This document shows positions 607-25,109 of a stretch of 64,000 bases of DNA, in pieces. Numbering within the stretch: the first letter of the stretch is position 1; each line of letters begins with the position of its first letter. Position numbers and translations under genes: made by a program. This stretch comes from Candidatus Aerophobetes bacterium Ae_b3b (GTDB lineage Bacteria > Aerophobota > Aerophobia > Aerophobales > AE-B3A): NCBI GenBank assembly GCA_005223085.1, contig NJBP01000002.1, positions 2,427 through 66,426 of the forward strand, in the 5' to 3' direction. Below the pieces are notes generated by a model. It had not been told where the DNA came from. It saw nothing but the letters and a program-made list of their open reading frames with translations, and searched no databases.

Positions 607-639
607 GGTTTACCTCCTGCAACTTTTCTGTTTTAGTTA

Positions 640-1854
640 CTATTCCTTCCCTAACCATCTTCCTAGTCTTGGTCTCAATATCTCTTTCATCCTGTCTACC
701 TTGGGGGATATTTCAGCTATATTGTTAAGCTCCTGGGGGTCCCGCCGAAGATCATACATCTCCCAGCTATCCGTATTCTCTCTGTATATCACTTTGAACT
801 CTTTGTTCTGGTAGTAGTATATGGGTCTATCGGTCTCCTTCTCGTGGGCGCTTCTTTTATCAATAGCCTCGCCAAAACATCCCCTTTCAGGAAACTCTTC
901 CAGAGGAAGGAGAGAGTGACCTTCAAAACTTTCCTCGCGGTCTAGGCCAAAAAGATTAACGATCGTGGGGGGGACATCAATGCTACTCACCAAGGTATCA
1001 GAAACCCTACCCCTCGTTTGGGTATGATTATAGATTAAAAAAGGCACATTTATGAGTTCGGAGTACATCTTGCCATCATGAGAGAGACCCCCATGTTCAC
1101 CAAACTCATCGCCGTGATCTGAAGTTATAACAATGACTGAACCCTCTAAGAGGTCGATTTTTTTTAATAGCTCAAAGAACTCTTCCACGTAACTGTCTAC
1201 TTGCCGAATATGGACAGAGTAAAGTTTTTTTAGAAGTTCTACCTTTCCTTTGTCGGAGAGATCTCGTTTCAGTAGAGTTTCTTTAAATAAGTTAAACATT
1301 TCACCCCGACTGAGGTCAATGGAAGAATCAACCATATCAATATATTTTTTCTCAGGCATATAGGGCTCATGCAAATCCATATAGTGAAGCCACAAGAAAA
1401 AAGGCTTGTATTTTCCTCCTTTGATATAGGAGGAGAGCCACTCCTTTACCTTTCCGTTAATCTCATCTCCTTTTATATAGGGAACTTCCTCACTCACTTC
1501 ATCTTCTATTGAATCATAAAAAACATCCCAGCACCGGTTCCAGCCAAAATAATCGCTAAGATAGGGATTTGAGTGAAACCCGGCGGTGGTGATTCCAGAT
1601 TTTTGAAGTACTGTAGAAATCAAGGTTTTCTTTGGGGAAAGATACTTCTCTCTTCCGTATTCAAGATAATATGAAGAGGTGAGTATCGCTGGAAATGAGG
1701 CCTGAGTGTATGGTCCTGTAGCCTGCATATTAGTAAATCTAATGCAGCTTCCCTGAAGAGAGTCAATAAAGGGAGTTAAGTTACTTTTGCTGTCATAGCA
1801 TCCTAGCACATCTTTTCTAAGGGTATCTATGGTAAGTAGAATAACATTTTTCAT
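640..1854 (-). CDS. sulfatase-fold (AlkP superfamily) hydrolase, Thr variant lacking C/S-x-P-x-R
   Basis: N-terminal LLTIDTLRKDVLGCYDS and IRFTN...TGPYTQASFPAILTS align to the sulfatase signature block. The FGly position reads T-Q-A-S-F, so both Cys and the Pro/Arg are lost. Confidence 0.7.
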   Translation of the reverse strand: MKNVILLTIDTLRKDVLGCYDSKSNLTPFIDSLQGSCIRFTNMQATGPYTQASFPAILTSSYYLEYGREKYLSPKKTLISTVLQKSGITTAGFHSNPYLSDYFGWNRCWDVFYDSIEDEVSEEVPYIKGDEINGKVKEWLSSYIKGGKYKPFFLWLHYMDLHEPYMPEKKYIDMVDSSIDLSRGEMFNLFKETLLKRDLSDKGKVELLKKLYSVHIRQVDSYVEEFFELLKKIDLLEGSVIVITSDHGDEFGEHGGLSHDGKMYSELINVPFLIYNHTQTRGRVSDTLVSSIDVPPTIVNLFGLDREESFEGHSLLPLEEFPERGCFGEAIDKRSAHEKETDRPIYYYQNKEFKVIYRENTDSWEMYDLRRDPQELNNIAEISPKVDRMKEILRPRLGRWLGKE

Positions 1855-1931
1855 TTTGCGTTCCTATTTGCTCTTCTTTTTATACTTTAACCTCTAGGTC
1901 TATCTGCAAGGTATCAATTTTTGGCTAATTA

Positions 1932-3191
1932 TTACCACAATGCTGGGAGTTTAAAAACAGGTTTTCTTTCAGCCAGATATTTCTCGGTACAAAAAGGAGA
2001 GCCAAAACCGTACTTTTCAGCGCTCTCCATTAACTTATCATATATCTCCGGTCTGAAGATAAGCTTGGTGGGCTTCACCTTATCCTCTATCATACTTCTA
2101 ATTAATGTACCGCTGAATTTTTGTCTTTCCTGGCTATGACCACAGAGACCCGAGTAAGTGACTTCCCCACATATTGGGCAGTACCACCATTCAAGCACCC
2201 GTACTGGCTTAATTTTCAATTTATGTTGGGGGATCTGGTCGAATATGCGGTGAGCATCATAGGAGCCATAGTAGCTACCTACTCCAGCATGGTCTCGACC
2301 AAACATGTGATGAGTGCATCCTAAGTTCGTCCGCAGAATGGCGTGGAAAATAGCCTCTCTTGGCCCTGCGTAGCGCATATCCCACAGAGCAATGGTCACC
2401 ATATGAATATCATCTCTGAAGTACCTTGCCTCACAAAGTCGCTGATGACACAAAACAATGGCCTCATCTATATAATCACCGGTTCGCTTAGGTCCAATTA
2501 TACAGTTTACCAGGATCCCTGTCTTTAGCTTCTCTACGGGAAGTTCTCCATTTGCAGAAAACCAAGCTCCCTTCATTAACCATTCATGCCCACTATGCGG
2601 CACATTCCTGGTTTGATGGGCTACTACTCTTTCCCAACCGTTTTCAACTATTCTCTTTCGCAGTTGCCTTGGCGTATACCAGAATCTATCAAAAGGGGGC
2701 TGGAACTCGGGGGGGTTCACCAAAGCAATCTTCCCCCCTAAGAAAGTATTCTCCAATCCCCTAAGCATTCTTACTCCAGGGTGTCTCTCATCGGTTGTTC
2801 CCAGCACAGCCTCTGCTATTTTCGTTTTATTGAGTCTGAAAATATCTTCCACTTCCATCATCGCCAATGAAGAGGCAGTGTAAGTAAGGAGAATGGAATC
2901 TCCTTTCTTAATTTTCTTTGTTCTGATTTCCTCCTCTTTCACATCGAGAACAATGGGGATAGGCCAGAGCGTGCCGTCAGCCAAGGTCATCCTTTCGCAT
3001 ACCGCATCAACCTCTTCCTTACCCATAAAACCCTCTAGGGGGGTAAAAAAACCGTAGGCGATGTTGATGCATTCTCTCGCACATCGTCCACTGACGGGAA
3101 TTTGCTTCAACTTTCTAATCTTTTCTGTTACTTCAGACTCGGGTATCACCCTTTCTCTAATCTCGCGGTTACCATGCCCCTCATAGTTCAT
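1932..3191 (-). CDS. sat: sulfate adenylyltransferase (ATP sulfurylase), Zn-ribbon-containing type
   Basis: QTRN(VPHSGHE) and GRDHAG motifs, PUA-like N-terminus (FTPLEGFM, LADGTLWPIPI). C-terminal CPICGEV-x8-CGH resembles the Cys3His zinc site described for Thermus Sat. Confidence 0.9.
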   Translation of the reverse strand: MNYEGHGNREIRERVIPESEVTEKIRKLKQIPVSGRCARECINIAYGFFTPLEGFMGKEEVDAVCERMTLADGTLWPIPIVLDVKEEEIRTKKIKKGDSILLTYTASSLAMMEVEDIFRLNKTKIAEAVLGTTDERHPGVRMLRGLENTFLGGKIALVNPPEFQPPFDRFWYTPRQLRKRIVENGWERVVAHQTRNVPHSGHEWLMKGAWFSANGELPVEKLKTGILVNCIIGPKRTGDYIDEAIVLCHQRLCEARYFRDDIHMVTIALWDMRYAGPREAIFHAILRTNLGCTHHMFGRDHAGVGSYYGSYDAHRIFDQIPQHKLKIKPVRVLEWWYCPICGEVTYSGLCGHSQERQKFSGTLIRSMIEDKVKPTKLIFRPEIYDKLMESAEKYGFGSPFCTEKYLAERKPVFKLPALW

Positions 3192-3266
3192 AGTTTAATC
3201 CTTCCCTCAAAAGGGTGTCGTCTTCGTTCAGATCGACTACCCCCTGTTTTTCTCTACTCTTTATGT

Positions 3267-4355
3267 TTAAGTAAATTTGCCCTTCATATCCTGTAGGCCT
3301 TCATGTTCCGGACCATATCGGTATGCTCTGGGGATAATTCTGTTATGTCCATAAACCGGATCGGACGAGGCAGAGAAGGGATTAACGAATTCCCAAACGA
3401 TCCGTCCTGATTTCATTACCTCAAAGATTCGTCCTGTCGCTGCCTCGCATATCAAAGTATTATCATTGGGTAGCCTCTGACAACTAGACATGTAGGCACT
3501 ATAAAAAGCCATCCAAGGGTCATCCTTATATTCCCACACCATTTTATTGGTAGCGGGATTTACCTCCAAAACGCGAGAGTACCCTTCAGAAATATGGACA
3601 CAGTGCGTCCCATTATCAAATAACAGAATGTTCCCATTTTCGAGGATGGTAGCACTATTTTGATGACCTAGCTCTCCTCCCGAACCCCACCGCCATTTGA
3701 TATCTCCTGTAGATTTGCTGATGATACATATACTATTAAGTCGGGCGAAGCTAGCTAAGATATCCCCATTGGATAGGATGGCAAATGAATTAGCCTCGGT
3801 CCACTGGCTACGGGGACATAAGGAACAAATAATGTCCTTTTCTGGATCTAAGTGCTCGTATGCCAACCACTTCCAGACTATCTTACCACGCGGATTAACC
3901 TCTTGAAAAGAGTCACCCCACATAATTCCTTCCTTTTCAGTACCTAGTATACCGCCTTTGACTTTTGCAGCAATATCCTTGGGTACCTGAACCCATCTAA
4001 GTACCATAGTATTTCCATTGAACAGGCGGCAAAAACTATGGTGCAAATACCGGTCCTGGTAATTCCATACCACATTACCATTCCAATCTACTTCAAGTAA
4101 CTCTCCCCCGGCACCCTTAAAACTAGCCAACGGTCCGTTTTCTAGCTGCCCGGCATAAAGCAGATTGCCACTATTCAAAAGCACCCCGTACAACGCTGGT
4201 GGATATGGTACCTTCCATTGATGAACGACCCGTCCCTTCATATCAATTAACATCGTTTCCCTTATTCCCAAAGGAGTAAATAAGGTATACCCATTGTAAG
4301 CATTTGAATGAACATAGTGGGTAACCCCTTTCAAATTGGTTCGTGCAATGCCCAT
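3267..4355 (-). CDS. arylsulfotransferase (ASST)-like beta-propeller protein
   Basis: Repeated NGN/DNG blade motifs (ENGNILLFDNGTH, LSNGDIL, LPNDNTLICE) and an HH(S/D)F block. Start moved to MGIARTNLKG (RBS AGGAGG 7 nt upstream) by comparison with the paralog; the ORF-track N-terminus is an extension. Confidence 0.5.
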   Translation of the reverse strand: MGIARTNLKGVTHYVHSNAYNGYTLFTPLGIRETMLIDMKGRVVHQWKVPYPPALYGVLLNSGNLLYAGQLENGPLASFKGAGGELLEVDWNGNVVWNYQDRYLHHSFCRLFNGNTMVLRWVQVPKDIAAKVKGGILGTEKEGIMWGDSFQEVNPRGKIVWKWLAYEHLDPEKDIICSLCPRSQWTEANSFAILSNGDILASFARLNSICIISKSTGDIKWRWGSGGELGHQNSATILENGNILLFDNGTHCVHISEGYSRVLEVNPATNKMVWEYKDDPWMAFYSAYMSSCQRLPNDNTLICEAATGRIFEVMKSGRIVWEFVNPFSASSDPVYGHNRIIPRAYRYGPEHEGLQDMKGKFT

Positions 4356-4385
4356 TGGATCTCCTCCTTGCCCCATTAAAAATAT

Positions 4386-5558
4386 CTACGTAGCATCAGG
4401 TCCATATATTCCATTTAACCACTCAAATTTGTCAGGATCTAAGTTCTTTCCTATTAGCCCCTCATGTTCATGTCCGTAGCGGTAAGCTCGATAGATTAGG
4501 TTAGCCTGACCGTAAACCACAAAGGGGCCATAAAAGGGACTGATATACTCCCAAACTATCTCACAATCAGGAGTCGCCTCGAAAATACGACCTCCATGAG
4601 TCTCACATATCAAAGTATTCCCGTTTGACAGACGCTGGGCCCCCCCCATACCAAAGGCATAGAACTCCGACGGAGGGTCATCCTTATATTCCCACTCAAT
4701 TTTATTAGTAGCTGGATTAACCTCCAATACTCTAGAATAGTAATCCAGATCTTGGGTGAAAAAACGATGCGCTCCATTATCAAAGACTAAAATATTCCCA
4801 TTATCCAGCATAGTAGGCTCATGCTGGTGTCCCAATTCCTCGGGACCCCACCTCCAGGTGATCTTTCCCGTAGCTTTATCAATAATACAGATGGTATTAG
4901 TCTGGCGAAATGAGCCTAAGATATTTCCATCTGGTAGCACAGTACAACCATTCATATGAGTCCATTCTCCTCGATACTCCAGAGGGCAAATGACATCTAT
5001 CTCCGGATCTAGGTGTTCGTACGATAGCCACTCCCACACTACTTTACCCTCAGGAGTAACCTCATTAAGGGCATCAGCCCACATAACCCCCCCGCTCAAC
5101 TCTGTACCCGGGATACCACCTTTGACCTTACTTTTAATGTCATCAGGCACAGTTACGTATTTTATAAGCATAGTATTTCCATTTTCCATGCGGTAAAAGT
5201 CGTGATTAAATTGTGGTTCTTCGTACTTCAATACCAGATTATTATCCCAATCTACCTCTATTAAACACACGCCTCTATCTTGCTCATTTTGCTCGCAATC
5301 CTCACCAAAGAGGTAGGCAACCCCCGGTCCCATTATGCCCCCCGACTTAACACCTTGATAAACCAGATTACCATTAGTCAAAAACCGTGCAAAATTTGGT
5401 TTATACGGTTCTGTAGACCAATGGTGCACAATTCTACCCTGCATGTCGATCAGCCACGCATCATTGCCAAACATAGGCGTAAACAAAGTATACCCTTTAT
5501 ATGCCTTTGAAGGAACATAGTGGGTAACCCCCTTCAAACTGGTTCGTGCAATACCCAT
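4386..5558 (-). CDS. arylsulfotransferase (ASST)-like beta-propeller protein, tandem paralog
   Basis: Paralog of 3267-4355 (MGIARTSLKGVTHYV..., LDNGNILVFDNGAHR, NHDF). Start set at MGIART with RBS GGAGG upstream. Confidence 0.5.
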   Translation of the reverse strand: MGIARTSLKGVTHYVPSKAYKGYTLFTPMFGNDAWLIDMQGRIVHHWSTEPYKPNFARFLTNGNLVYQGVKSGGIMGPGVAYLFGEDCEQNEQDRGVCLIEVDWDNNLVLKYEEPQFNHDFYRMENGNTMLIKYVTVPDDIKSKVKGGIPGTELSGGVMWADALNEVTPEGKVVWEWLSYEHLDPEIDVICPLEYRGEWTHMNGCTVLPDGNILGSFRQTNTICIIDKATGKITWRWGPEELGHQHEPTMLDNGNILVFDNGAHRFFTQDLDYYSRVLEVNPATNKIEWEYKDDPPSEFYAFGMGGAQRLSNGNTLICETHGGRIFEATPDCEIVWEYISPFYGPFVVYGQANLIYRAYRYGHEHEGLIGKNLDPDKFEWLNGIYGPDAT

Positions 5559-5728
5559 TGGATTTCCTCCCTTCGTCAACCTGATTAAGAATCTTCTCGT
5601 ACCTCGTGTTACGACCAACACAAACTAGACACAGCCTTGACATAGGCTGTTGACATATCCTATCTCCTCCTTAAAAAGCCTCTTTTATGAGAAAGGGGAT
5701 TATTCTTGATTCCGCCTGATACTAAATT

Positions 5729-7204
5729 TCAATAACCTAAAAACTTGAGCCGAGAAGCTACTTTCTTGTCAGTCTCTTCGGGAGATGGCATTACCTCTTT
5801 TTTTACCATAGGTAGAATGGATGGCCTTTCCATATTTCTTGGGGTTGGTATGTCAAGAACATCCAGAACAGTCGGAGCAATGTTAAGTAATGATACTCCC
5901 TTAAGTTCCTTTCCCTCTGGGATACCTGGCCCAGTGATAACAAAGTAGCCACATAAACCATATGCCACGTCATGACAGTCTTTTGCAGTATCAAATGAAT
6001 ATATTCTCTCTTGGTCATGACCTACTAGCTCACTGGTACCTAATCGGCCTTCATCAAAGTCCACCAACAGGTCCGGACCGTAGCTTACGTAAGGACCAAA
6101 ACAAATATCACCGGGCTGCCACACCTGAGTGTTTAGAGGTTTTCCACCCTTATCGGGAATATCCTTTAGCTTAGCGGTCAATTCACCCAAGAATTTATCA
6201 TAGTCCTTGGGGTCAACAATTCCTTGCGGTTCCCTTCCCTTCATATTGAGGTATAACTTACCAGTATAACCCGTACTCCAGCATTTTGTCCTAGACCAGT
6301 CCACCTTAACATCCTTGAATGAGGTCGGCCTCTGTGGTTGCTCAAAGAGGCTCATATATCCCTCTTTCATTAGCCACTCATCAAGATTGATCCGTCCCTG
6401 AAGTTCTTTGGCACTATAGCCACTATAAATGAATAGTACGGTCTCTTTAGGTACGTTCTGATAGAGTTCTCCAATATTCTTATCAATCCAAAGGTAGTAA
6501 TCATGCAAAGCTCCTTCATAATGAGGATCAGGAGTGTACTGTCTATTTTGCGAATTAAAACCACCATAGAAAAGACTCAGCATCCGAGTACATCCCATTA
6601 CTGCCGTCATAACACAGTCACAATTTTTTTCATTAATAAAATACTTTGTCAATACGAAACGCTGCGAATCCATTTCGTAGATTTTTTGGAGCACCCGGCC
6701 CTTATCTACCTCCTTACCACCCACATCGGCCTCCGTCAGGTCAATAATATATTTCCCGACTAATTCATAAACCTCATCTTTAAGATTCTCGGGATAGGTA
6801 AAGCTAAGATCGAGGTTCGGAGTTATCAATCCAGAAATAACATAGCCTGCGGGAATTTTGGGAGAGGGCCAAGTAGCCGGGACATTAATCATCGCTACTC
6901 TCTGCATCTTTTTAGGAAGGATTGTGTATAGTAGATCAACCCTTCTTGTGACTTCGGAACTAACCACTTTTTTCTCACCATAAGAGAAATCATCCCTATA
7001 GGTAAAATCCCAGATTCCATAGGCTCCAGGGTTCCGACCAGATTGAGTGGATATCCACACTTGAGGGAGAGCCGGAGGAATTGCACTTTCTAAAACTCCC
7101 CAAATTCCCCTCTTCTGCATTTTCATCAAGTTAGGCAGCTCGTCCGCCCACTGCCTAAGAAACTCGGGACATAATCCATCTAAGCCCAGCAATACTACTC
7201 TTGC
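5729..7204 (-). CDS. AlkP-superfamily type I phosphodiesterase / nucleotide pyrophosphatase-like protein
   Basis: MARVVLLGLDGLCPEFL N-terminus (metal-ligand Asp block) and paralogy to 18279-20213. Start set at MARVV (RBS AGGAGG). The residue aligned to the NPP Thr nucleophile appears substituted (..PPALPQVW..). Confidence 0.55.
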   Translation of the reverse strand, partial: ARVVLLGLDGLCPEFLRQWADELPNLMKMQKRGIWGVLESAIPPALPQVWISTQSGRNPGAYGIWDFTYRDDFSYGEKKVVSSEVTRRVDLLYTILPKKMQRVAMINVPATWPSPKIPAGYVISGLITPNLDLSFTYPENLKDEVYELVGKYIIDLTEADVGGKEVDKGRVLQKIYEMDSQRFVLTKYFINEKNCDCVMTAVMGCTRMLSLFYGGFNSQNRQYTPDPHYEGALHDYYLWIDKNIGELYQNVPKETVLFIYSGYSAKELQGRINLDEWLMKEGYMSLFEQPQRPTSFKDVKVDWSRTKCWSTGYTGKLYLNMKGREPQGIVDPKDYDKFLGELTAKLKDIPDKGGKPLNTQVWQPGDICFGPYVSYGPDLLVDFDEGRLGTSELVGHDQERIYSFDTAKDCHDVAYGLCGYFVITGPGIPEGKELKGVSLLNIAPTVLDVLDIPTPRNMERPSILPMVKKEVMPSPEETDKKVASRLKFLGY

Positions 7205-7548
7205 CATAGACAGGCCTCCTAATTTCAGTAAGTCAGGAAGAGAAGTGCAACTTAAGGAAAAATTACTAAGCAGTCCTTCTCTCGTCTGAAGCATATTCGT
7301 AACTTTATTTTTACGAAAAAACCCTCGATCCCTGATTTCTCTAACAAAACTTTCACTCTCGCAGCATTGCCGAGCTTTTCCATATTCCTGTCGGTTATCA
7401 GTAAGGGCTTCTCACCAAATTCGATTGCTTCACTTCCCACTCTCCCAGTTCCAGTTGCTCTTCTTAATATTGATATTTGAAATATCTTTAAATTACTTCT
7501 GCTGTAGCCTTATCTTCGAGTTTACGAGTAAAGTGTCCATTACATCTT

Positions 7549-8373
7549 TTATATCTTTACGGCCCCCGCGGTAAGCCCTCTTACAAAATACTTCTGCAAT
7601 AAGAAAAAACCAATAATTAAGGGAAAACACACTATTACATCTATGGCCATAAGATCATTCCAAAATATATTATATTGACCTAACTTGGCACCTATAACTA
7701 CAGTTAGCATCCGTCGATTAGCAGAAGTAGTGAGTACAAGTGCAAATATATATTGGTTCCACGCAACCAAAAAGCCAAATAAAGCCGTAGCTATCATTCC
7801 AGGAAAAGATAATGGCAGAATTATTCGGAGAAAGGCTCCCAATCTTGAGCATCCGTCGATTAGCGCAGCATCATCCAGATCTACAGGTATATTGACAAAA
7901 AATCCTCTGAGTATAAGTGCACAAAAAGGTAAAGTAAATGTAAGATAGGTTAGCATGAGACCAGGATAGGTATCGTAAAGTCCAGTTCTCTTTAATATAA
8001 GATAATAGGGAAGGATTAAAAGAACAGGGGGTATCATCTGTGTGGAAAGCATATAGATAATAAATGTATTTTTACCCTTAAATTCGAATCGAGAAAGCCC
8101 GTATCCTGCCACTGCTGCTAAGAACACAGAAACTAATGCTACGGAAATGGAAACTATCACGCTATTAATAACAGCCTGCAGGAATGCCGGATCACTCAAT
8201 ACCCTTTCGAAAGCTCCGAAGGTTATCTTTTCTGGTACCCAACGAGGAGGAATGGTGAAGACTTCCTGCGCTTCCCTTACAGAAATTGTGCACATCCAAA
8301 ATATAGGAAATACTATAATTATAACTACTACAATACAACAGGTAAACCATACATATTTCTTAATATTCGTCAT
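7549..8373 (-). CDS. carbohydrate ABC transporter permease (MalG-like)
   Basis: Six TM segments and the EAA-loop region (DAALIDGCSRLGAFLRIILP). Confidence 0.85.
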   Translation of the reverse strand: MTNIKKYVWFTCCIVVVIIIVFPIFWMCTISVREAQEVFTIPPRWVPEKITFGAFERVLSDPAFLQAVINSVIVSISVALVSVFLAAVAGYGLSRFEFKGKNTFIIYMLSTQMIPPVLLILPYYLILKRTGLYDTYPGLMLTYLTFTLPFCALILRGFFVNIPVDLDDAALIDGCSRLGAFLRIILPLSFPGMIATALFGFLVAWNQYIFALVLTTSANRRMLTVVIGAKLGQYNIFWNDLMAIDVIVCFPLIIGFFLLQKYFVRGLTAGAVKI

Positions 8374-8403
8374 CTAGGCCACTTATCTTGCCAAATTTAA
8401 AAC

Positions 8404-9288: not shown

Positions 9289-9540
9289 TTTTTAGCTCTT
9301 TTCCAAAAATAGTTTGCACTTAATTCGTCGATGGGAGCTATGATTTTCTCACCACTATATTCTATTGCATATCTAACAAGAAGAGGTATTTGCAGTACAT
9401 CGGGAGCAGTACCAGCATTTACAGCCACTAATATCTTCTCCTCGTATCTCGGGCCACTAACTCCTATAGTATTTAAAATCTTCTTATGTTGAGCGTTTCC
9501 CTCTACCGAGCAAAGAAAAACTCTTCCCCCGTTTGATTTT
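9283..9540 (-). pseudogene. remnant of an extracellular solute-binding protein gene (fragment, no proper start)
   Basis: Minus-strand frame reads ...KILVAVNAGTAPDVLQIPLLVRYAIEYSGEKIIAPIDELSANYFWKRAKK*. It resembles the AGxxPDV block of the neighbouring SBP (MWQAGRLPDVLAVNRNWLWEF...EPLDPY). It is bounded upstream by an in-frame TAA, and its stop overlaps the permease ATG (ATGA). Confidence 0.35.
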
Positions 9541-9631
9541 TAGCAAGCCTGATATCATCCACTTTATCCAGCGCCTCTCGAGCTATCGCTCAAAATGAAC
9601 CTGCTTCATTCCTCACTTATAGTACAGAGGC

Positions 9632-9676
9632 AAAGGAAAGCTGGAAGTTAAATAGCCCCAGCTTTCCTTTGCTGTT
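9632..9676. terminator. perfect 15-bp stem hairpin between SBP and permease genes
   Basis: GCAAAGGAAAGCTGG-13 nt-CCAGCTTTCCTTTGC located 25 nt downstream of the SBP stop. Probably an intra-operon attenuator/stabiliser hairpin; no clean U-run. Confidence 0.45.
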
Positions 9677-9699
9677 CTAATCGCTAGTAAATGATTTTT

Positions 9700-13366: not shown

Positions 13367-14215
13367 TCATTGCTTAACAGCCCCCGCCGCAAGTCCCGCA
13401 ACTAAATGGCGCTGCAACAAAAGGAAGAAAATAACGGTAGGGACAGTAGCCACGACTGAGGCAGCCATCACTACTCCCCAATCCGTTGTATACTGCCCAA
13501 GAAAGTTTGCTACCCCCACCGGTACGGTCTTTTTCTCAGTCTGGGTCATCAAGGTTAGCGCAAACACAAACTCGTTCCATGTTACTGCAAATGTATATGC
13601 TGAAGTTGCCACCAGACCCGGCAGGGAAATGGGCAAAATTACTCGAAAAATGACGCCCAGTGGTGAGCACCCATCGACAACGGCTGCCTCATCCAAGACT
13701 TTGGGAATTGTCTCAAAGTAACCTAATAGCATATATATGGAGAAAGGTACCGTAATGGCGATATAGACAATGATCAAACCCAGATAGGAGTTCACCAGGC
13801 GAAGGGCCCAAAACATCATAAAAACGGGGGTAACTAAGATTACCCAGGGGAACATTTGGGTAAAACCGACCATGGCCAATATTGAATTTCTCCCCGGGAA
13901 ATGATAGCGGGAAATGGCATAAGCCGCTGGCGAAGAGATAAGCCAAACACAAACGATAGTAGCAGTCGTGCACATAAACACGCTATTTAGAACGAAGCGG
14001 AAAAATCCAGCTTCAAGGATTCCCCGGTAATTTTCCAAGGTTAACGAACGACCGATCAATTGGAGTTCCCTGGTTAATAAATCAGTGGAAGGTTTTAGAG
14101 AACTAATAATCATCCAGAAGAAAGGGAATAGTATCAATCCAATGATGGCAAAAGTTACTACTACCACCGGTAAATCGCGGATCCTTGAAGACATATTCTC
14201 TTCGCTCCATATCAT
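13367..14215 (-). CDS. carbohydrate ABC transporter permease (MalG-like)
   Basis: EAA loop (DEAAVVDGCSPLGVIFRVILP) and TM profile. Confidence 0.85.
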   Translation of the reverse strand: MIWSEENMSSRIRDLPVVVVTFAIIGLILFPFFWMIISSLKPSTDLLTRELQLIGRSLTLENYRGILEAGFFRFVLNSVFMCTTATIVCVWLISSPAAYAISRYHFPGRNSILAMVGFTQMFPWVILVTPVFMMFWALRLVNSYLGLIIVYIAITVPFSIYMLLGYFETIPKVLDEAAVVDGCSPLGVIFRVILPISLPGLVATSAYTFAVTWNEFVFALTLMTQTEKKTVPVGVANFLGQYTTDWGVVMAASVVATVPTVIFFLLLQRHLVAGLAAGAVKQ

Positions 14216-15201
14216 GCAGTTATATTTCGTTTAAAAAGAGTACTAAAATATACCAATGCGAATCCCATCATTATCACCGTCATTATGACCCCAAAGGTTG
14301 CCCCGTACCCTACCTTGTAATTGACAAAGCTCTCGAAATACACATTGGTCCCCAGTACATGAGTAAAATCACCTGGACCTCCTCGGGTAGAGAGCCACAC
14401 GTAAACAAAATTGTTAAATGTCCAGATTGTGATCATGAAACCCACGATGGTGATAATTGGTTTCAGAAGAGGAAGTGTGACATAACGAAGTTCATGAAAC
14501 CAGCCCGCTCCATCGATTCTGGCAACTTCGTATAACTCCTGCGGGATGGATTGAAGCCCAGCAAGAAAACTGACCACGGCGAACGGCAGCTCTCGCCATA
14601 CCACTATTAAAATAATTGATAGCCAGACGACAGAAATATCAGTTAAGAAAAAAATCGGCTGACGTATCAATCCGAGGTTCTGAAGAGTTAAATTGACCAC
14701 TCCGTATCTGCTATGAAGCATCCACTTCCAAATGGTTACCGCCACCACAGGAGGAACTCCCCAGGGTACAAAAATAAGTATGCGCCCCATTCCGGCTAGG
14801 TGCCACCGCTTTAAGGCCTTGGAATTTAAAAGCAGTGCCAGTCCAAGACCCAGTAAAATCCGAAAAACCACCGTGGCCCCTGTGAGCCACAATACTGTGT
14901 TCTTAAGGGCATTATAAAACGCAGGATCCTCCGTGACCTTGATGAAGTTTTCCAGACCGACGAATTCTCCTCTTCCCTTGGCAGTCTCAAAAAGGCTAAT
15001 CTTATGCAGACTGAGCTCTATATTATACAGGGAAGGTATGAAGAAAAAGAAGACCAGGAGGGCTACGGCGGGCAAAATCAACCCATAGGCGTGAAATCTA
15101 GGTCGATGAGACCTATGCAGCCTTCCCCAGAGATTATTACTCTTCCCCATTTCTAGCCCCCCTGTCTCCTTTTTATCCTCACCTACACCATTTTCTTGCA
15201 A
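14212..15201 (-). CDS. carbohydrate ABC transporter permease (MalF-like)
   Basis: EAA loop (YEVARIDGAGWFHELRYVTLP). Stop overlaps the downstream permease start. Confidence 0.85.
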   Translation of the reverse strand: MQENGVGEDKKETGGLEMGKSNNLWGRLHRSHRPRFHAYGLILPAVALLVFFFFIPSLYNIELSLHKISLFETAKGRGEFVGLENFIKVTEDPAFYNALKNTVLWLTGATVVFRILLGLGLALLLNSKALKRWHLAGMGRILIFVPWGVPPVVAVTIWKWMLHSRYGVVNLTLQNLGLIRQPIFFLTDISVVWLSIILIVVWRELPFAVVSFLAGLQSIPQELYEVARIDGAGWFHELRYVTLPLLKPIITIVGFMITIWTFNNFVYVWLSTRGGPGDFTHVLGTNVYFESFVNYKVGYGATFGVIMTVIMMGFALVYFSTLFKRNITA

Positions 15202-15204
15202 CTT

Positions 15205-16539
15205 CTAGGACTTCCCGGTTGCCTCTTGCAATGCCTCCTCAATAGCCTCCAGGAGATCCTTGCTTGCTCTTTCTACTGACTTCTGACCCGAATAAACCGC
15301 AGCGAATTCACGGTTCGTAAGGGACCACATCGTCTGTACTCGAACAGGTGAGACAATATACTCATAGAATGTCTGTGCTTGCGGTATGAGTTTTACATAT
15401 CCCTCGTATTCAGATGCATAGCTAACTTTTTCCAGAAGCGTTTTTTGGGCGGAGAACTGTTGTCGGTAATAGGTTTCAAATACATGCTCAGAGCACATCC
15501 ATTTTAGAAGTTCCCAGGATTCCTTTAGATGTTTGGTATTCTTGTTGATGGCCAGAGTGCGCCCTCCCAAGTGGGTTCGCCGAGTCACCCTGCCTGCCGG
15601 AACCTGGGCAGAGGCTAGGGGTGCCTGGGGATTAGCGTCCATTGCCGCACGAAATGATTGAGGGGGCATGAATCCCATAGCAAAGTCACCTTTGGCCAGT
15701 CCATGGAGTATCTCGGGGTCTCCCCAGGAGTCGACGGCGATTAAGGATCGTGGGGAAATACCTTCCTCAAAGAAACTATTGAAATACCGCATGGCTTCCG
15801 CAATTGCCTCGGCATCAACTCCAAGTTGCCAGGTACCATCGCCGTTTTGTTTCATAAAGGTATATCCGTGACTCCAAATAAAGTAGTTAACCAAGAACCA
15901 CATTCCCCCGGTAGGGCCGCTGCCGGCTGGAAAAGCAAAGCCGTATCGATCTATTATTCCATCTCCATCACGATCTTCGGTCAGTTTCTTTGCCACCTCT
16001 TTGAAATGAGACCAGGAATCGTCCGGAAAGCCAACAATACCCGCTTTGGCAAAGAAATCTTTTCGATATATCATCGCGAAGGTATCAGTGGTCCAAGGGA
16101 TTCCATAGACATCATCACCCATCTTTCCAAGCTCTAGCGCGACAAAATCATCAATTCCCCTCGGTAGTGGATATTTCTCGAACAAGGGATTGAGTTTAAC
16201 CAATGTACCAGCCTTGGCCAAGTCCATTGTCCATACAAAAGCAAGTTGGAGCACATCGGGGCCTCCACCAACTCCCGCTTCCCGGACAAATTGAGTAAGA
16301 GCATCTGACCAGGGTACTACCTCATATTGGACTTTGATGTTAGGATGCTTCCGGTCAAACTCTTGCACAGCTTCTGATAGGCCAGTAGCATCAGCCGGAG
16401 AATCGTTTTGCCGGAATATCAGACTAATCTTATCTTGGGCAAATCCGGCCATCCCGGTGACCAACGTTAAAGTCAAACTAAGACCTACTACTAAGACAAG
16501 CTCTATTAGTTTTCGTTTCTCAATTCTCATTAATTTCAT
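15205..16539 (-). CDS. ABC transporter extracellular solute-binding protein
   Basis: Signal peptide and family-1 SBP-like sequence. Confidence 0.8.
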   Translation of the reverse strand: MKLMRIEKRKLIELVLVVGLSLTLTLVTGMAGFAQDKISLIFRQNDSPADATGLSEAVQEFDRKHPNIKVQYEVVPWSDALTQFVREAGVGGGPDVLQLAFVWTMDLAKAGTLVKLNPLFEKYPLPRGIDDFVALELGKMGDDVYGIPWTTDTFAMIYRKDFFAKAGIVGFPDDSWSHFKEVAKKLTEDRDGDGIIDRYGFAFPAGSGPTGGMWFLVNYFIWSHGYTFMKQNGDGTWQLGVDAEAIAEAMRYFNSFFEEGISPRSLIAVDSWGDPEILHGLAKGDFAMGFMPPQSFRAAMDANPQAPLASAQVPAGRVTRRTHLGGRTLAINKNTKHLKESWELLKWMCSEHVFETYYRQQFSAQKTLLEKVSYASEYEGYVKLIPQAQTFYEYIVSPVRVQTMWSLTNREFAAVYSGQKSVERASKDLLEAIEEALQEATGKS

Positions 16540-16656: not shown

Positions 16657-16689
16657 CTCTCACCTCCCTCCTGGCCTTATTTTCTAGCT
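16657..16689 (-). promoter_or_regulatory. conserved upstream box, copy 2
   Basis: tctctcacctccctcctggccttattttctagct, about 120 nt upstream of the SBP start. Confidence 0.5.
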
Positions 16690-16974: not shown

Positions 16975-18282
16975 TTAGAAAGACCGACGATAAATTTGCT
17001 CCACATCTTCCTCAGTTGCTGGGACAGGATTCTTTTCTACACCTCTCCTCATAGTTTTAAACGCACCTTGGGCCATATTCGAAATCTTATTTTGATCGAT
17101 CTTCAATTGACTAAGATTTACTCTCAAACCCACCTTCTCCAGTAGCTCCTTTACTGCCTGGATACTCTTTTTTGCCTTCTCCTTAGTGCATTCACGTATC
17201 GATTGACCCATAGTTTTAGCTATCTCACAGTACTTATGCACAGTTTTTTTATCCCCGTTATCGATGTTAAACTCCATCACGTTAGAGGAGATGGCAGCTA
17301 AGGCCACCCCATGATCAACATTAGGATAATGTCCGCTTATCGGATGAGCCATAGCGTGGGGAAGAGCTGCAGATGCGACGGCAATAGCCCAACCAGCGTA
17401 GGTATCAGCGAGGGCCATGTTGAATCTTGCCTCCATGTTATCTCCTTCCCGGTAGGCTGCAGGAAGATAACTGAAGACAAGTTCAATCGCCTTCAAGCAG
17501 TAGCTATCTACAATAGGATTACCCTCCCTGGATACAAAAGCCTCCAAAACATGGGCCAAGGTATCAAATCCTGTACGGGCAGTTAGTTCTGGAGACATAT
17601 TTTTTGCTATATTTAAATCTACAATGGATACCCGGGGATACATATACTCTGAACCGAACCCTGGCTTTTCACACGTCTCAGGGTTGCTAATCACAGCATA
17701 TCTGGTTACATGACTTCCAGTACCCGACGTGGAAGTCACAGCAATTACGGGTAATGTGGCCTCGGTTATAGATAGTGGTTCATCCTGTGTTACCGAGAAA
17801 TCCCAGATAGAACAGGGGCTACTTTTAGAGTGCCCTGCCACTACTGCTATTACTTTTGCCGAATCCATAGCCGAACCTCCACCCATGCCCACTATCACCT
17901 CACACTGGTTTTGTAAAGCCAATTTAGCCCCTTCATCCACTATATCTACGGTGGGATTGGGTTCTACCTTCCCATAATGGAATACCTTAAGCCCTTCTTG
18001 CTCCAGATATTTTCTTGCTTTGTCCAAGAATCCCAATCTCTGCATGCTTTTTCTACCTGTAACCAGTAGGACAGATTTACCCAGTTTTCTTGTCTCTTTA
18101 CCGAGACTTTCCAGCGCTCCCTCTCCAAATATGAGGTTAGTTCGAGGAAATAGGTACCGAAATGTCATTTTCTTCTCCATCTGTAGTTTATGACTACTTT
18201 TGCTTACCCTGTCTTCTATATTTTCCAGCACTCCTTTACCAGACATTAACTCTGTTCTGGGTAGCAGATATTCAAAATTCAT
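16975..18282 (-). CDS. iron-containing alcohol dehydrogenase family protein
   Basis: GGGSAMDSAKVIAV and Fe-ADH His block (ALPHAMAHPISGHY). ATG overlaps the stop of the upstream NPP-like gene (ATGA). An alternative start is at M39 (18168). Confidence 0.85.
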   Translation of the reverse strand: MNFEYLLPRTELMSGKGVLENIEDRVSKSSHKLQMEKKMTFRYLFPRTNLIFGEGALESLGKETRKLGKSVLLVTGRKSMQRLGFLDKARKYLEQEGLKVFHYGKVEPNPTVDIVDEGAKLALQNQCEVIVGMGGGSAMDSAKVIAVVAGHSKSSPCSIWDFSVTQDEPLSITEATLPVIAVTSTSGTGSHVTRYAVISNPETCEKPGFGSEYMYPRVSIVDLNIAKNMSPELTARTGFDTLAHVLEAFVSREGNPIVDSYCLKAIELVFSYLPAAYREGDNMEARFNMALADTYAGWAIAVASAALPHAMAHPISGHYPNVDHGVALAAISSNVMEFNIDNGDKKTVHKYCEIAKTMGQSIRECTKEKAKKSIQAVKELLEKVGLRVNLSQLKIDQNKISNMAQGAFKTMRRGVEKNPVPATEEDVEQIYRRSF

Positions 18283-20213
18283 TCTTCTTGCTCCACTACA
18301 TCGTAAAGTACTCGCCCCTCTGCATTTCCCGGTGGGTGTATGCCTACAAGATAAGCTACAGTTGGTGTCACATCTATAGTTCTCGCTGGAACCTTACGTC
18401 GATATCCCTTTTTAACACCTGGACCCTTTATGAAAAGAATTGCTTTCATCGTCCCCAAGTTCTGCCTAGAAGACGGAAGATAGGTATGGTGGACGCCAGC
18501 GAAGGGATAAATGCCTTCCTCAGACTCATAGGGAGGATCCTCAATAATAGGCAGTCCTTTAGTGAGTATCCAAGCTGTCTCATCGTTGTACTTTGGATTT
18601 AGAGTATATACGATATCTCCCACTCTATCTCCGTGCTGACCAAAAAACGCGGCCTCTTCCTTCTTCAAGATCATATTTACGACATTCTCTCTAGTTTCTG
18701 GATCTTTGAGATTTCGGAAAAGGTCGATAACCTTCTCTCTTATCTTCTCGTAATCTTTAGGGTCTACAACCCCTCCTTTTTCTCGTCCGGCGAGGTTAAC
18801 ATAAATATACGAACCAAAGGGAGAAAAGACTTTAGTTTTGGACCAGTCAACTTTCAGGTTACCATCCTCAGTCTCTTTGTAAGCTATAAGACCTTCTCTC
18901 GCCAAAAAGTTATTGCAGTGGAATACCTTCCTTGGAGCCATATGTCCATGGTCTGAGACAACTAAGATAAGGGCCTCTTCTCCAGCTGCTTTCATAAGTC
19001 TTCCTAAGTAGACATCCGCCATCTGATAGACTCTACGGATGACCTCTTCACATTCTGTTGCCCTTTGCTCCTTGTAGGCAGAACTTTCCGGGTCCATTCC
19101 TCCAAGATAGCAGTGATCAGTGTAATCTATTCCGTGCCACTGGGCAAAGAGCATATCCCAGTCCTTATTCTTCACAAGATACTCTCCTGCCTCTGCCAAC
19201 CAGCTCATTTGATTCTCCAGCTCCTCTAGATATGTTTTTGAATCTATCCATCCTCCCAATATAGGACTGTAAATATCACAGAGAAGCTGATACGGTCGGC
19301 CGATATGCTCTGTGAGCTCTCTGGCAAGACTATCTGGATAAGTCCACCCCGTGGAGGGAAAGATCTGGCTAAAGTAGAGACGAAACCTTTTCGCATCCTT
19401 GGAAAGCTCAATGAGTTTCATACGAAAGTTCCCTTCCTCTTTTCCTTTACTGGTGGTAAATTCTGCCTTCAAAAAGTTGCTCCACTCCCCTTCAGTTATG
19501 CTACATAAAGCTTTTTCTATATCTTTTTCCTCTGAGAGGAAAAATCTGTCGTAACCCTCACCTTTGCTATCTATAACCAGAGCATAAAATGCTTTCTCTT
19601 CTCCCCCCGGAGGACGGATCTTTAGTATGGTCTCTAGCGGAGGAGAGTTTGAAGAAGGCCTGTTTCCCCATCTCTGCGCCTCCTTAAACTCTACCTTATA
19701 GGCACAGCTTATCTCCTTAGGTCCTGCCCCATAGGCTTCCATGTTTCTTTCTCGCATCTTCTCTGTGGAAAACCCAAGTCTAGGAGCAATTTGGAAAGGG
19801 TTCCAATCTGGATTTCCCACTCCTTCAACCTGTAGACCTTCCTTTATAGTTGGAGGCCAGGAGGCTGGGTAACGCAAGAGAATTACCTTCTTTCCCTGTC
19901 TTTCTGCTGCGTTCCATAGGTACTCTGCCTGACATCTTTCGGTGGTGAAAGACTGAAACCTCTCAGAAAGGGAAGTTCCGGGAAGATGAAGAGTCATCTC
20001 CACAATACCGTGAGTACCTACGTTGGCTCCTGTGGCAATACAGGTCCAGTTCATAGCTGTACCTGTGGGAATAGCAGGAAAAGTTTCTGAGGTCACTCCC
20101 TCTTCCATAAGGCGCTTCATGTTGGGAAGATGACCTTCCTTCACAAATCTTTCCACTAAGTTCAAATTCGCAGAGTCGAGTCCTAGTAGTATACATTTTT
20201 TTACGCGTGCCAT
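18279..20213 (-). CDS. AlkP-superfamily type I phosphodiesterase / nucleotide pyrophosphatase (NPP)-like protein
   Basis: ILLGLDSANLNL and FPAIPTGTAMNWTCIATGANVGTHGI match the NPP PTxTFPNHYTxVTGxxPxxHGI nucleophile block (Thr). Confidence 0.7.
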   Translation of the reverse strand: MARVKKCILLGLDSANLNLVERFVKEGHLPNMKRLMEEGVTSETFPAIPTGTAMNWTCIATGANVGTHGIVEMTLHLPGTSLSERFQSFTTERCQAEYLWNAAERQGKKVILLRYPASWPPTIKEGLQVEGVGNPDWNPFQIAPRLGFSTEKMRERNMEAYGAGPKEISCAYKVEFKEAQRWGNRPSSNSPPLETILKIRPPGGEEKAFYALVIDSKGEGYDRFFLSEEKDIEKALCSITEGEWSNFLKAEFTTSKGKEEGNFRMKLIELSKDAKRFRLYFSQIFPSTGWTYPDSLARELTEHIGRPYQLLCDIYSPILGGWIDSKTYLEELENQMSWLAEAGEYLVKNKDWDMLFAQWHGIDYTDHCYLGGMDPESSAYKEQRATECEEVIRRVYQMADVYLGRLMKAAGEEALILVVSDHGHMAPRKVFHCNNFLAREGLIAYKETEDGNLKVDWSKTKVFSPFGSYIYVNLAGREKGGVVDPKDYEKIREKVIDLFRNLKDPETRENVVNMILKKEEAAFFGQHGDRVGDIVYTLNPKYNDETAWILTKGLPIIEDPPYESEEGIYPFAGVHHTYLPSSRQNLGTMKAILFIKGPGVKKGYRRKVPARTIDVTPTVAYLVGIHPPGNAEGRVLYDVVEQEE

Positions 20214-20471
20214 ACCATGCTTCTCCCTAGTTCGTTAATGTGCCCTTCGCAAAATTCGAAAATCAGCTACTGCTACTTTATCTCCTATCTGCTTGCGATA
20301 GAGTATCCATCAGTCCAGAGTTTTCTGCTGCAGCATCTTCCGCTTAGATGTAGGAACTCATACAAAATCTCATTCCTCGATATACTCTTTATTATATTCA
20401 CCAGCTTTGCTGGAGTGTGCCTTGGTGGAGCTGAAAGGAAAAGATGGACATGACCCCTCATATTGTAAGAA

Positions 20472-21845
20472 CTACCTCACTGAAGTGTGAGATAACTCAT
20501 ACTGAAGCTGCAACATCTTTGTTTTCTGGGAGAAGGTTCTGTTTATCTCTTTTACTTTAAGGGTGAAATACCTGCCAAGATGGGATAAAAACTCCTCTAC
20601 TTTTTCCGGATACTCGTCGATGAGGTTTTTTGTTTCTTTAGAATCCCCCTTTAAGTTATAAAGTTCATTTTTCTCCCCTTCAGGGTGAACAAGTAAGCTC
20701 CACTCTTTATCTCGGATGCACCGATGATATGATTCATGGTAACCGGTTATGATAAAATCTCTTATCTTCTCCTTTTTTCCCCTAACAACGGGCCAGAAGC
20801 TTTTCCCGGACATAGCCTGGGTCTCTTTTTTGAGATCCATTGCCTCCAGGATGGTAGGAAGAACATCAGGCATTTGAATGAGAGTATCAATCCTTTTCCC
20901 TGCATAAAGTCCCTCAGGAGGATGAATGAAAAGAGGTATTCTTATAAGCTCACCGTATAGATTATCCGGGGTCTTCATTATGGAGCCATGATCTCCATGA
21001 GGATGTCCATGATCGGAGAGGAGTGCTATAAGAGAGTTATCATAAAGACCACAATCTTTTATCTTCTCTAAAAGGTATCCCACCCACTTATCCACAAAGC
21101 TTACCTCTCCTGCATATAGAGCTTTCACATATTTTAGCTCCTCATCACTCATCCAGTCAACTTTTCCATATTGGGGATGGATGAGTTTGGGACCTTCATA
21201 ATTAGGATTGGTATACATCTTATCAAAAGGAGAAGGAGGGTCCCAGGGCTCATGGGGATCAAAGGAGTCCACCCAGAGAAAGATCTTTTCCTCACCTTTA
21301 TTGCGTTCCAGCCACCTTACCGCCTCCTGCATGACCTGGGCGGCAAAATAGTCTTCTTCTTTTTGCCAATGTTCGGTATTTTTCAAGTACTGCTCAAGCA
21401 TTCCCTCCACAGGATCGCCTTTCATGGCTGGCTTTATATAACCATTGATATTCTTATTTAAAGGGCCTGACACATAGGAGTCTGCCTCCTGTCCCCTTAT
21501 CCAACGAAAGCAGCTAAATCCTCGGTGAAAGTTCATGTCAGGTTTAAATAAATGGTAGGTGTCAGCAATCAAGGCTGAGGTGTAGCCGTACTCTCTCAAT
21601 ATCTCTGAGATAGTTACATCCTCTTTGGTTAAGGGTTGCCAGGGTCGGTAGGGAAGGCTACTACATCCTGTGAAAAGCTCAGTTCTAGCCGGAATGGTGG
21701 GAAGACCTTCGGTGTAAGCCTCTTCAAAGAGGATACTCTCCTTAGCAAATTTATCTATATTGGGCGTCTTTATCCATGTATTCCCATAGCATCCCAGATG
21801 ATCCTGCCTCAAACTATCCAGCATAATCACAATAAGGTTCATCAA
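20472..21845 (-). CDS. sulfatase-fold enzyme, T-x-P-x-R variant (paralog of 11575-12993)
   Basis: MLDSLRQDHLGCYG N-terminus. AYTEGLPTIPARTELFTG carries Thr-Ile-Pro-Ala-Arg where sulfatases carry Cys/Ser-x-Pro-x-Arg. Confidence 0.75.
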   Translation of the reverse strand: MMNLIVIMLDSLRQDHLGCYGNTWIKTPNIDKFAKESILFEEAYTEGLPTIPARTELFTGCSSLPYRPWQPLTKEDVTISEILREYGYTSALIADTYHLFKPDMNFHRGFSCFRWIRGQEADSYVSGPLNKNINGYIKPAMKGDPVEGMLEQYLKNTEHWQKEEDYFAAQVMQEAVRWLERNKGEEKIFLWVDSFDPHEPWDPPSPFDKMYTNPNYEGPKLIHPQYGKVDWMSDEELKYVKALYAGEVSFVDKWVGYLLEKIKDCGLYDNSLIALLSDHGHPHGDHGSIMKTPDNLYGELIRIPLFIHPPEGLYAGKRIDTLIQMPDVLPTILEAMDLKKETQAMSGKSFWPVVRGKKEKIRDFIITGYHESYHRCIRDKEWSLLVHPEGEKNELYNLKGDSKETKNLIDEYPEKVEEFLSHLGRYFTLKVKEINRTFSQKTKMLQLQYELSHTSVR

Positions 21846-23209: not shown

Positions 23210-23212
23210 TCT

Positions 23213-25101: not shown

Positions 25102-25109
25102 ATCACTGT

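Follow-up and report, generated by a model that had tools for sequence, protein, structure and literature searches.

Three genes for sulfatase-fold proteins with threonine at the formylglycine position were identified on the minus strand of a 64,000-nucleotide stretch of the assembly of Candidatus Aerophobetes bacterium Ae_b3b, a sediment bacterium (contig NJBP01000002.1, positions 2,427 to 66,426; hereafter the window). These are S1 (640–1854, 404 amino acids, TKJ46252.1, deposited as 'hypothetical protein'), S2 (11575–12993, 472 amino acids, TKJ46260.1, deposited as 'sulfatase') and S3 (20472–21842, 456 amino acids, TKJ46267.1, deposited as 'sulfatase'), the start codon of S3 being ATG at 21842 and not TTG at 21845. 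Because a conserved threonine stands where sulfatases need formylglycine, S1, S2 and S3 probably perform other ester chemistry than sulfatases, as members of large uncharacterised families. The best overall explanation, to which we give a probability of about 0.55 with the proposed substrates included, is that they would be threonine-nucleophile metalloenzymes of the sulfatase/phosphonate monoester hydrolase branch and not formylglycine sulfatases.

All three proteins matched the Pfam Sulfatase domain PF00884 with E-values of 1e-35 to 1e-41 (5.6e-41 for S3) and also contained the C-terminal SGSH_C subdomain, in keeping with the sulfatase fold. They were the only PF00884 proteins among the scanned open reading frames (ORFs) of the window; the scan included ORFs of at least 110 amino acids, the sole non-overlapping ORF left out being 62777–63340 (187 amino acids). 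No NCBIfam model scored above its cut-off for any of the three. Their N-termini open at the first catalytic β-strand (MNLIVIMLDSLR and similar) with no signal peptide, and S1, S2 and S3 are therefore predicted to be cytoplasmic, in agreement with an earlier note on this DNA (the original prediction) that had described them as soluble.

The nucleophile motif reads G-P-Y-T-Q-A-S-F-P in S1 (T50, codon ACT at 1705–1707), L-P-T-L-Q-V-R in S2 (T49, ACT at 12847–12849) and L-P-T-I-P-A-R-T-E-L-F-T-G in S3 (T49, ACC at 21696–21698). In phmmer alignments the threonine was placed opposite the Cys/Ser (formylglycine) column of 3ed4, 7an1, 7oz8, 6hhm, 4uph, 5g2v, 4upl and 4upi, with the flanking residues and the downstream T-G (or T-S) at +9/+10 in register in all eight; for 4uph, 4upl and 4upi the residue aligned to the threonine is Cys (Ala in the crystallised variant). 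Profile–profile alignment of the two families set T49 of S3 opposite T50 of S1. The AlphaFold model of S3 (predicted local distance difference test, pLDDT, 91.4; built from 62 homologues) has a helix at residues 49–58, preceded by a strand at 37–43, and T49 is the first residue of this helix, the site where enzymes of the alkaline phosphatase superfamily have their nucleophile. The model of S1 was unusable (pLDDT 62, shallow alignment), and the fold comparison refers to the S3 model only. The cysteine two residues past T-G in S2 and S3 is not conserved, and neither Cys nor Ser is present at the nucleophile position. As threonine does not yield an aldehyde on oxidation, none of the three proteins can acquire the canonical cofactor. 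The eight structure-anchored alignments, the S3 model and the conservation of the threonine hence bear out the two central claims of the original prediction, i.e. that Thr occupies the formylglycine position in S1, S2 and S3 and that no canonical formylglycine can arise for lack of a Cys or Ser nucleophile. Its label 'T-x-P-x-R' is correct for S3, but not for S2 (T-x-Q-x-R) or S1 (T-Q-A-S-F, without Pro and Arg). The sulfatase signature C/S-x-P/A-x-R was accordingly found in none of the three, S2 having in addition Gln for Pro, and S1 Ala for Pro and Phe for Arg. The SulfAtlas authors likewise pointed out that Thr in PF00884 seed sequences gives no aldehyde, and that the 30 of 59 seed sequences with Thr, which are of the T-x-N-x-E type, are not to be called sulfatases (PMC5066984).

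A radical S-adenosylmethionine (SAM) maturase encoded elsewhere in the genome could alternatively modify the threonine to a 3-oxo residue, the ketone hydrate of which would mimic formylglycine; we consider this scarcely credible. S3-type proteins do keep the rest of the maturase motif (x-P-x-R, L-x-T-G), and peptide analogues with threonyl or allo-threonyl residues are reportedly accepted by anSMEs in vitro; however, S2-type proteins lack the Pro and S1-type proteins both Pro and Arg, a ketone is inferior to an aldehyde both as an electrophile and in forming a hydrate, and the literature searched contained no mention of a protein with such a residue. As the original prediction had it for the vicinity of the genes, neither FGE (PF03781) nor an anSME-type radical SAM protein was matched among the scanned ORFs of the 64 kb, where the sole radical SAM/CxxxCxxC protein was a B12-binding class enzyme (58510–59871), and only one anSME-like candidate neighbour was encountered in 160 related loci. 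One maturase often serves many unlinked sulfatase genes, which makes the absence from the window weak evidence.

S2 and S3 are paralogues (42% identity) and belong to one clade, in which the threonine is highly conserved. At E ≤1e-10, 5,599 database sequences are related to S3, and the best 120 of these (48–88% identity) have Thr in 119 cases and Ser in one. Searched exhaustively with S2, the 50%-identity representatives yielded 496 clusters at E ≤1e-30, the best 149 of which were aligned to the family profile. In the 131 representatives covering the site, the nucleophile residue was Thr in 124, Cys in six and Ser in one; Arg53 (S3 numbering) was present in 130, and the Pro position was occupied by Pro in 105 and by Gln in 18, the latter representing the T-x-Q-x-R subclade of S2. 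The L082 orthologue of S2 keeps PTLQVRRVLQTG. All four ACN codons are used for the threonine across loci, in the S2/S3 clade and in the S1 family alike, which together with the conservation indicates that selection is on the amino acid; judged from these codons and alignments, the threonine is maintained by purifying selection and not a product of drift. Bacterial and archaeal members as divergent as about 31% identity still have it.

With one genome scanned per species, the clade was present in at least 595 bacterial and archaeal species genomes. Every one of the 80 loci listed came from an uncultured lineage, namely Armatimonadota, Planctomycetota, Chloroflexota, Poribacteria, Latescibacterota, Desulfobacterales and Aerophobetes among the bacteria, and Bathyarchaeia, Thermofilaceae, Brockarchaeota and Hadarchaeota among the archaea; Anaerolineae carry the clade as well. 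'Arylsulfatase A-like enzyme' is one of the names given to homologues in databases, and organosulfate use has been inferred from sulfatase annotations in studies of sediments and sponge symbionts (for example PMC6129605). If the proteins of the S2/S3 clade are not sulfatases, sulfatase counts in metagenomes are inflated. Members of a distant subclade of the S2/S3 clade (P0265, P0276, P0308, P0378 and neighbours, found as representatives with S2) have N-terminal extensions of 40–95 residues with twin-arginine-like motifs (SRRSLLRSA, RRQLLTG), which indicates that exported forms exist.

For a view of the active site, S3 residues were mapped via the PDB alignments onto the AtsA numbering given in the SulfAtlas paper (PMC5066984). 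H197, K290 and R53 of S3 are the equivalents of the sulfatase residues H211, K375 and R55, and the metal ligands D9 and D277-H278 are kept. In S3 numbering, the invariant or near-invariant residues of the S2/S3 clade are D9, R12 and D14 in strand 1, P48-T49-x-P51-x-R53...T58-G59, D94-x-Y-H97, R116-G-Q-E119, F-D195-P-H197-E198-P-W, D277-H278, and K290. The metal and active-site set was present also in S1 (D10, H162, D246-H247 and K262), which keeps T50, H94 and the surrounding D160-x-H162-E-P as well. The retention of metal ligands, His, Lys and Thr across the clade argues against pseudoenzymes. That S1, S2 and S3 would be non-catalytic relics or ligand-binding pseudoenzymes derived from sulfatases is, to our judgement, very unlikely: the NPP-like gene at 5729–7294 of the same window is probably such a relic and S1 has lost the signature Arg and Pro, yet the ligands, His and Lys are invariant or near-invariant and the threonine persists at the divergence stated above.

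Two sulfatase features are altered in the clade. Asp94 takes the place of the sulfate-binding Lys of the second signature G-K-x-x-H in 131 of 135 representatives, with the His kept in 105, and the combination of residues equivalent to AtsA Lys113 and His115 was found in none of S1, S2 and S3. In the D-N metal pair of sulfatases, Asn is replaced by His, giving D-H as in phosphonate monoester hydrolases. D94, H97 and H197 are a possible second metal site. A Lys-to-Asp switch specific to the threonine proteins and creating such a site was considered and rejected, because Cys-type relatives have Asp94 too and the two changes are uncoupled.

Foldseek with the S3 model returned the phosphonate monoester hydrolase 4uph as the best match, with 2w8s and 2vqr near the top. 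After 4uph, sulfatases of SulfAtlas family S1 (not to be confused with gene S1) were mixed with phosphonate monoester hydrolases at template modelling (TM) scores of 0.61–0.71 and 19–24% identity, and no LtaS or EptA structure was among the top 50 matches. With the sulfatases of SulfAtlas family S1 (AtsA 1HDH, 3ED4, 6PSM, 7OZ8, 6HHM), which include the best sequence and structure matches, the proteins share a fold of two subdomains (PF00884 and SGSH_C) and a nucleophile signature that is placed and spaced alike (x-P-x-R...L-x-T-G in S3), as well as the metal site and the H211- and K375-equivalent His and Lys. They differ by Thr for Cys/Ser, by Asp for the G-K-x-x-H Lys in S2 and S3, by their predicted cytoplasmic location and by the lack of a linked maturase gene, the S1 gene product additionally lacking Arg and Pro. 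The group of phosphonate monoester hydrolases and promiscuous arylsulfatases (RlPMH 2VQR, BcPMH 2W8S, 4UPH, and SpAS1/2 4UPI/4UPL), which acts on singly charged phosphodiester, phosphonate and sulfate esters, shares with them the N-terminal D-x-L-R-x-D, the D-H metal pair, the absence of a K113-type Lys and the absence of a signal peptide. Phosphonate monoester hydrolases, however, use formylglycine and not Thr, and identity to them is only about 20%; the NCBIfam PehA model gave 83–126 bits against S1, S2 and S3 with a cut-off of 900, short of family-level similarity.

Precedent for threonine chemistry is found elsewhere in the superfamily, in line with the statement of the original prediction that a Thr nucleophile is typical of NPP, LtaS and EptA chemistry, which is established knowledge. 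In the PF00884 enzymes LtaS, EptA (MCR-1) and OpgB, the Thr nucleophile is bound to the metal and forms a threonyl-phosphoester as the covalent intermediate. Unlike S1–S3, which are 404–472 amino acids long, begin at the catalytic strand and have no membrane domain, they possess a multi-pass membrane anchor, an extracytoplasmic domain and a T-x-N-x-E type signature, and lack SGSH_C; NCBIfam models of the LtaS/EptA/OpgB type gave 19–31 bits against cut-offs of 561–1240. The Thr-dependent bimetallo phosphodiesterases NPP, PafA and PhnA (PF01663) belong to the same superfamily and have Thr at the equivalent helix N-terminus, but differ by a two-zinc site with Asn and by the lack of a C-terminal sulfatase subdomain; PF01663 matched S1–S3 only locally, over 30–65 residues around the D-H-G motif, and not at full length. 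From these comparisons we infer that S1, S2 and S3 are built like sulfatases and work like the Thr-nucleophile members. The T-x-P-x-R clade and the T-Q-A-S-F family of S1 are real, widespread and uncharacterised: apart from the SulfAtlas remark, no literature was found on either, on the S1/CysD-like module described below, or on characterised members.

According to the mechanism proposed, S1, S2 and S3 would be catalytically competent, cytoplasmic and metal-dependent enzymes, in which a metal-bound Thr alkoxide would replace formylglycine as the nucleophile. As in NPP, EptA and LtaS, a threonyl ester would be the covalent intermediate of catalysis, and the aldehyde-hydrate chemistry of true sulfatases would not be used. 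The Thr side chain would be bound to the metal, its position being equivalent by alignment and by the secondary structure of the model. Alkaline phosphatase, NPP, PhnA, EptA, LtaS, iPGM and DeoB all employ Thr or Ser as a metal-activated alkoxide with a covalent ester intermediate, and it is by analogy to these that we infer the nucleophilic Thr and the covalent intermediate of S1–S3; their substrates are likewise proposals. The purpose of formylglycine is to allow release of sulfate from the enzyme by elimination, which sulfo-threonine cannot undergo; phospho-threonine intermediates are routine. Together with the loss of the Lys and the phosphonate monoester hydrolase as structural relative, this favours, with moderate confidence, phosphate (di)esters for S2 and S3. 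These two enzymes would most likely cleave an ester group of single charge, rather a phosphate diester or monoester than a sulfate ester, from sugars imported by the adjacent CUT1-type ATP-binding cassette (ABC) importers.

Several observations weigh against this preference and make sulfate esters a serious rival substrate. Of the residues that contact sulfate, three (R53, H197 and K290) persist, and among the anionic substituents of environmental glycans, sulfate esters are the more common. Poribacteria, Latescibacterota, Planctomycetota, Anaerolineae and Bathyarchaeia, in which the clade occurs, are presumably degraders of sulfated glycans. The solute-binding proteins of the three importers are nearest to the oligosaccharide binders MalE3, TMBP, CbpB, GacH and SmoF, the last a binder of sulfoquinovosyl-glycerol. 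The neighbourhoods of S3-type genes elsewhere, including four loci on long contigs, are heterogeneous, and context consequently does not fix the substrate. The position of S1 among sulfur-activation genes fits sulfuryl as well as phosphoryl chemistry. Finally, the six Cys-type members with C-x-P-x-R (P0339, P0355, P0370, P0373, P0375 and P0383) keep the clade signature of Asp94, R-G-Q-E and D-P-H-E-P-W, so the scaffold alone does not demand Thr chemistry; in a rough neighbour-joining tree without branch support they grouped together inside the Thr-type radiation. Thr and C-x-P-x-R members on one signature offer a natural experiment on why formylglycine is used and how the scaffold shifts between sulfuryl and phosphoryl transfer.

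In its full form this rival makes the proteins genuine sulfate-ester hydrolases without formylglycine, in which Thr would attack sulfur and metal-activated water would then hydrolyse the sulfo-threonine, or in which Thr would be only a metal ligand and water the attacking group. The fold and the closest relatives, those of SulfAtlas family S1, are of the sulfatase kind, the R/H/K triad, the sugar-type importers and the Cys-type relatives with the same signature suit it, as do the host lineages as presumed degraders of sulfated glycans, and S1-type genes are embedded with ATP sulfurylase, arylsulfotransferase (ASST)-like and TauE genes. Nevertheless, a sulfo-alkyl ester on Ser or Thr is not releasable by elimination of the formylglycine type, Ser/Thr-nucleophile members of the superfamily show trace sulfatase activity only, and the K113-equivalent Lys has become Asp, with the Arg lost as well in S1. 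We therefore regard sulfate-ester hydrolysis as unlikely, though as a contender to be taken seriously next to the Thr-nucleophile phosphate (di)esterase preferred for S2 and S3.

S1 is a different case. The implication of the original prediction that the three proteins form one class did not stand: S2 and S3 constitute one clade, and S1 belongs to another family with another conserved partner. S1 shares 25% identity with S3, and its 2,121 relatives at E ≤1e-10 are separate from the S2/S3 clade. The motif G-P-Y-T-Q-A-S-F-P-G is near-invariant in the family, with Thr in every homologue motif inspected. S1 is without the signature Arg and Pro and the second-signature Lys, and its G-K-x-x-H region reads F-H-S-N-P-Y.

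Downstream of S1 lies a truncated gene of the PAPS_reduct family (1–605, minus strand), of which the window edge leaves the N-terminal part with the PP-loop (..ITWTGGKDST..), its start near 605 being inferred from the locus L083. The full-length orthologue in that locus (L083:9250–10092) matched PF01507. The protein combines the PP-loop T-G-G-K-D-S with a C-terminus resembling that of CysD and lacks the ECGLH Cys of PAPS/APS reductases; its best NCBIfam match was CysD (100 bits, below the cut-off), and we refer to it as CysD-like. Immediately upstream of S1 on the minus strand is the gene for ATP sulfurylase (Sat, 1932–3191; PF01747 and PUA_2; NF003166 with 492 bits, above the cut-off), and then two tandem ASST-like β-propeller genes (3267–4376 and 4386–5621, minus strand; PF05935, PF14269) without signal peptides. 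Characterised ASSTs are periplasmic.

In a sample of 80 metagenomic S1-type loci, a PAPS_reduct-family gene was immediately downstream of the S1-type gene in 72 of the 75 loci having a downstream gene, ATP sulfurylase was immediately upstream in 31 of 74, and ASST-like genes were present in about 30 of the 80. DUF6955, TauE, TRAP and TTT transporter genes were likewise recurrent. The degenerate NPP-like gene recurs in the module. The module was found in Aerophobetes and Dehalococcoidia (window 1–7294; L081, L082, L083, L167 and L168), and comprised in Dehalococcoidia a fused double ASST (766 amino acids in L167), NPP-like, S1-type, CysD-like, another sulfatase-like protein, Sat, TauE and AF_1016. 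A further sulfatase-fold protein of 449 amino acids in the Aerophobetes locus L081 (7023–8372) has S-S-Y-T-G-A-A-T-P at the nucleophile region, again with neither Cys nor Ser at the nucleophile position; similar genes recur beside the S1-type/CysD-like pair, the window itself having none. With an approximate CysC query, neither the window nor the 80 S1-type loci gave an APS kinase. As a module conserved across phyla, S1-type/CysD-like/Sat/ASST-like/TauE provides a lead into the sulfur metabolism of subsurface bacteria.

The near-obligate pairing with the CysD-like gene, and with Sat, points to chemistry of S1 on adenylyl sulfate (APS), pyrophosphate (PPi) or a related adenylate. S1 would be the dedicated partner of the CysD-like adenylyltransferase and ATP sulfurylase, and would most likely act, by transfer or hydrolysis, on the phosphoryl or sulfuryl group of an intermediate related to adenylyl sulfate (APS or PPi). 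A transferase role for S1, in which an acceptor resolves the threonyl intermediate, is as plausible as hydrolysis. Extended to all three proteins, the proposal that they are group transferases or mutases, comparable to LtaS, EptA, iPGM and DeoB, and above all that S1 would pass a sulfuryl or phosphoryl group to or from an adenylate handled by the CysD-like protein, is possible and on the whole doubtful. Transferases are established among Thr-bearing PF00884 enzymes (LtaS, EptA and OpgB), the S1-type/CysD-like pair is retained in the 72 loci and across phyla, and the module includes ASST-like sulfotransferase homologues and, within the limits of the query, no APS kinase; on the other hand, no acceptor was identified, no S1/CysD-like fusion was detected in the top 120 homologues of either, and S2 and S3 stand after importers and elsewhere beside catabolic enzymes, where hydrolysis fits better. 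A Rosetta-stone fusion as a link of S1 to the CysD-like protein was thereby dismissed. The assignment of S1 as a phosphatase of 3'-phosphoadenosine 5'-phosphate (PAP) was also weakened, because the approximate query gave no APS kinase in the window or the 80 loci and the partner is CysD-like rather than a Cys-containing PAPS reductase.

A more far-reaching scheme, which we consider improbable, is sulfuryl chemistry without formylglycine in the form of a sulfo-threonyl relay, in which S1 together with the CysD-like, Sat and ASST-like proteins would interconvert organosulfate and adenylyl sulfate, flanked by organic-anion importers (TRAP, TTT, ABC) and a TauE-type anion exporter, no APS kinase having been found. 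If true, the relay towards ATP sulfurylase would yield ATP from organosulfate, AMP and PPi, i.e. substrate-level phosphorylation for energy-starved subsurface fermenters, and in reverse it would be a sulfation route independent of 3'-phosphoadenylyl sulfate (PAPS).

The three genes are part of a single minus-strand array of more than 20 genes, which extends over window positions 1 to ~29,400 and contains, in the order of transcription, an IclR regulator, an aldo-keto reductase, importer 3, S3, NPP2, an iron-dependent alcohol dehydrogenase, importer 2, S2, importer 1, the NPP-like gene 5729–7294, the two ASST-like genes, Sat, S1 and the truncated PAPS_reduct gene. All three importers are of the CUT1 type. 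Importer 3 (22088–26483), directly upstream of S3, consists of a solute-binding protein, two permeases and a MalK-type ATPase; importer 2 (13367–16539), directly upstream of S2, of a solute-binding protein and two permeases; and importer 1 (7549–11016), between S2 and the NPP-like gene, of two permeases and a solute-binding protein. Glycerophosphodiester uptake of the Ugp type was unsupported, as all three solute-binding proteins matched oligosaccharide binders best and not UgpB.

Directly downstream of S3 on the minus strand is NPP2 (18279–20213, 644 amino acids), a PF01663-type protein in which Thr, Asn and DHGH are all preserved. The NPP2 stop overlaps the start of the gene for iron-dependent alcohol dehydrogenase (16975–18282, minus strand), which suggests a coupled phosphodiesterase and alcohol/aldehyde oxidoreductase step. 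The other PF01663 protein, NPP-like 5729–7294 (minus strand), has in alignment with NPP2 Leu for the Thr nucleophile, Val for Asn, and YSGYS for SDHGH; it does not use Thr and is probably a pseudoenzyme that has lost nucleophile and metal ligands. Of the earlier statement that two of the sulfatase-like genes adjoin Thr-using NPP-like genes, the part on S3 and NPP2 holds; NPP-like 5729–7294, with Leu at the nucleophile position, has three genes between it and S1 and another three between it and S2. No solved relatives of the NPP-like proteins were found by sequence.

Around the 80 S3-type homologues, the NPP, alcohol dehydrogenase and solute-binding neighbours of the window were essentially absent. 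De novo clustering of these loci, based like the other neighbour analyses on heuristic ORF calls, gave weakly recurrent neighbours, foremost GFO/IDH/MocA oxidoreductases (13/80) and enolase-superfamily dehydratases (10/80), and further aldo-keto reductases, HpcH aldolases, PfkB kinases, and GntR regulators with TTT or MFS transporters. Such neighbours suggest cytoplasmic processing of imported sugars or sugar acids for S2/S3-type proteins, and do not identify the ester group.

In the remainder of the window, dnaA (32018–33361, plus strand) coincides with a change of sign in GC skew (window 31800–33400), and a chromosomal replication origin is therefore probably located near 32 kb; the sulfatase-like array lies on one side of this putative origin and is co-oriented with replication. 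A 727-amino-acid ORF (44215–46398, minus strand) beside dapA represents a lysA-dapF fusion of a pyridoxal phosphate-dependent Orn/DAP decarboxylase and a diaminopimelate epimerase domain. Rfam identified no riboswitch near S1, S2 or S3. Two cobalamin riboswitches were present at the far end of the window, one (58206–58428, minus strand) upstream of a TonB-dependent receptor/TonB-like/tetratricopeptide repeat operon (53455–58023), and the other (62559–62743, plus strand) upstream of the small ORF 62777–63340.

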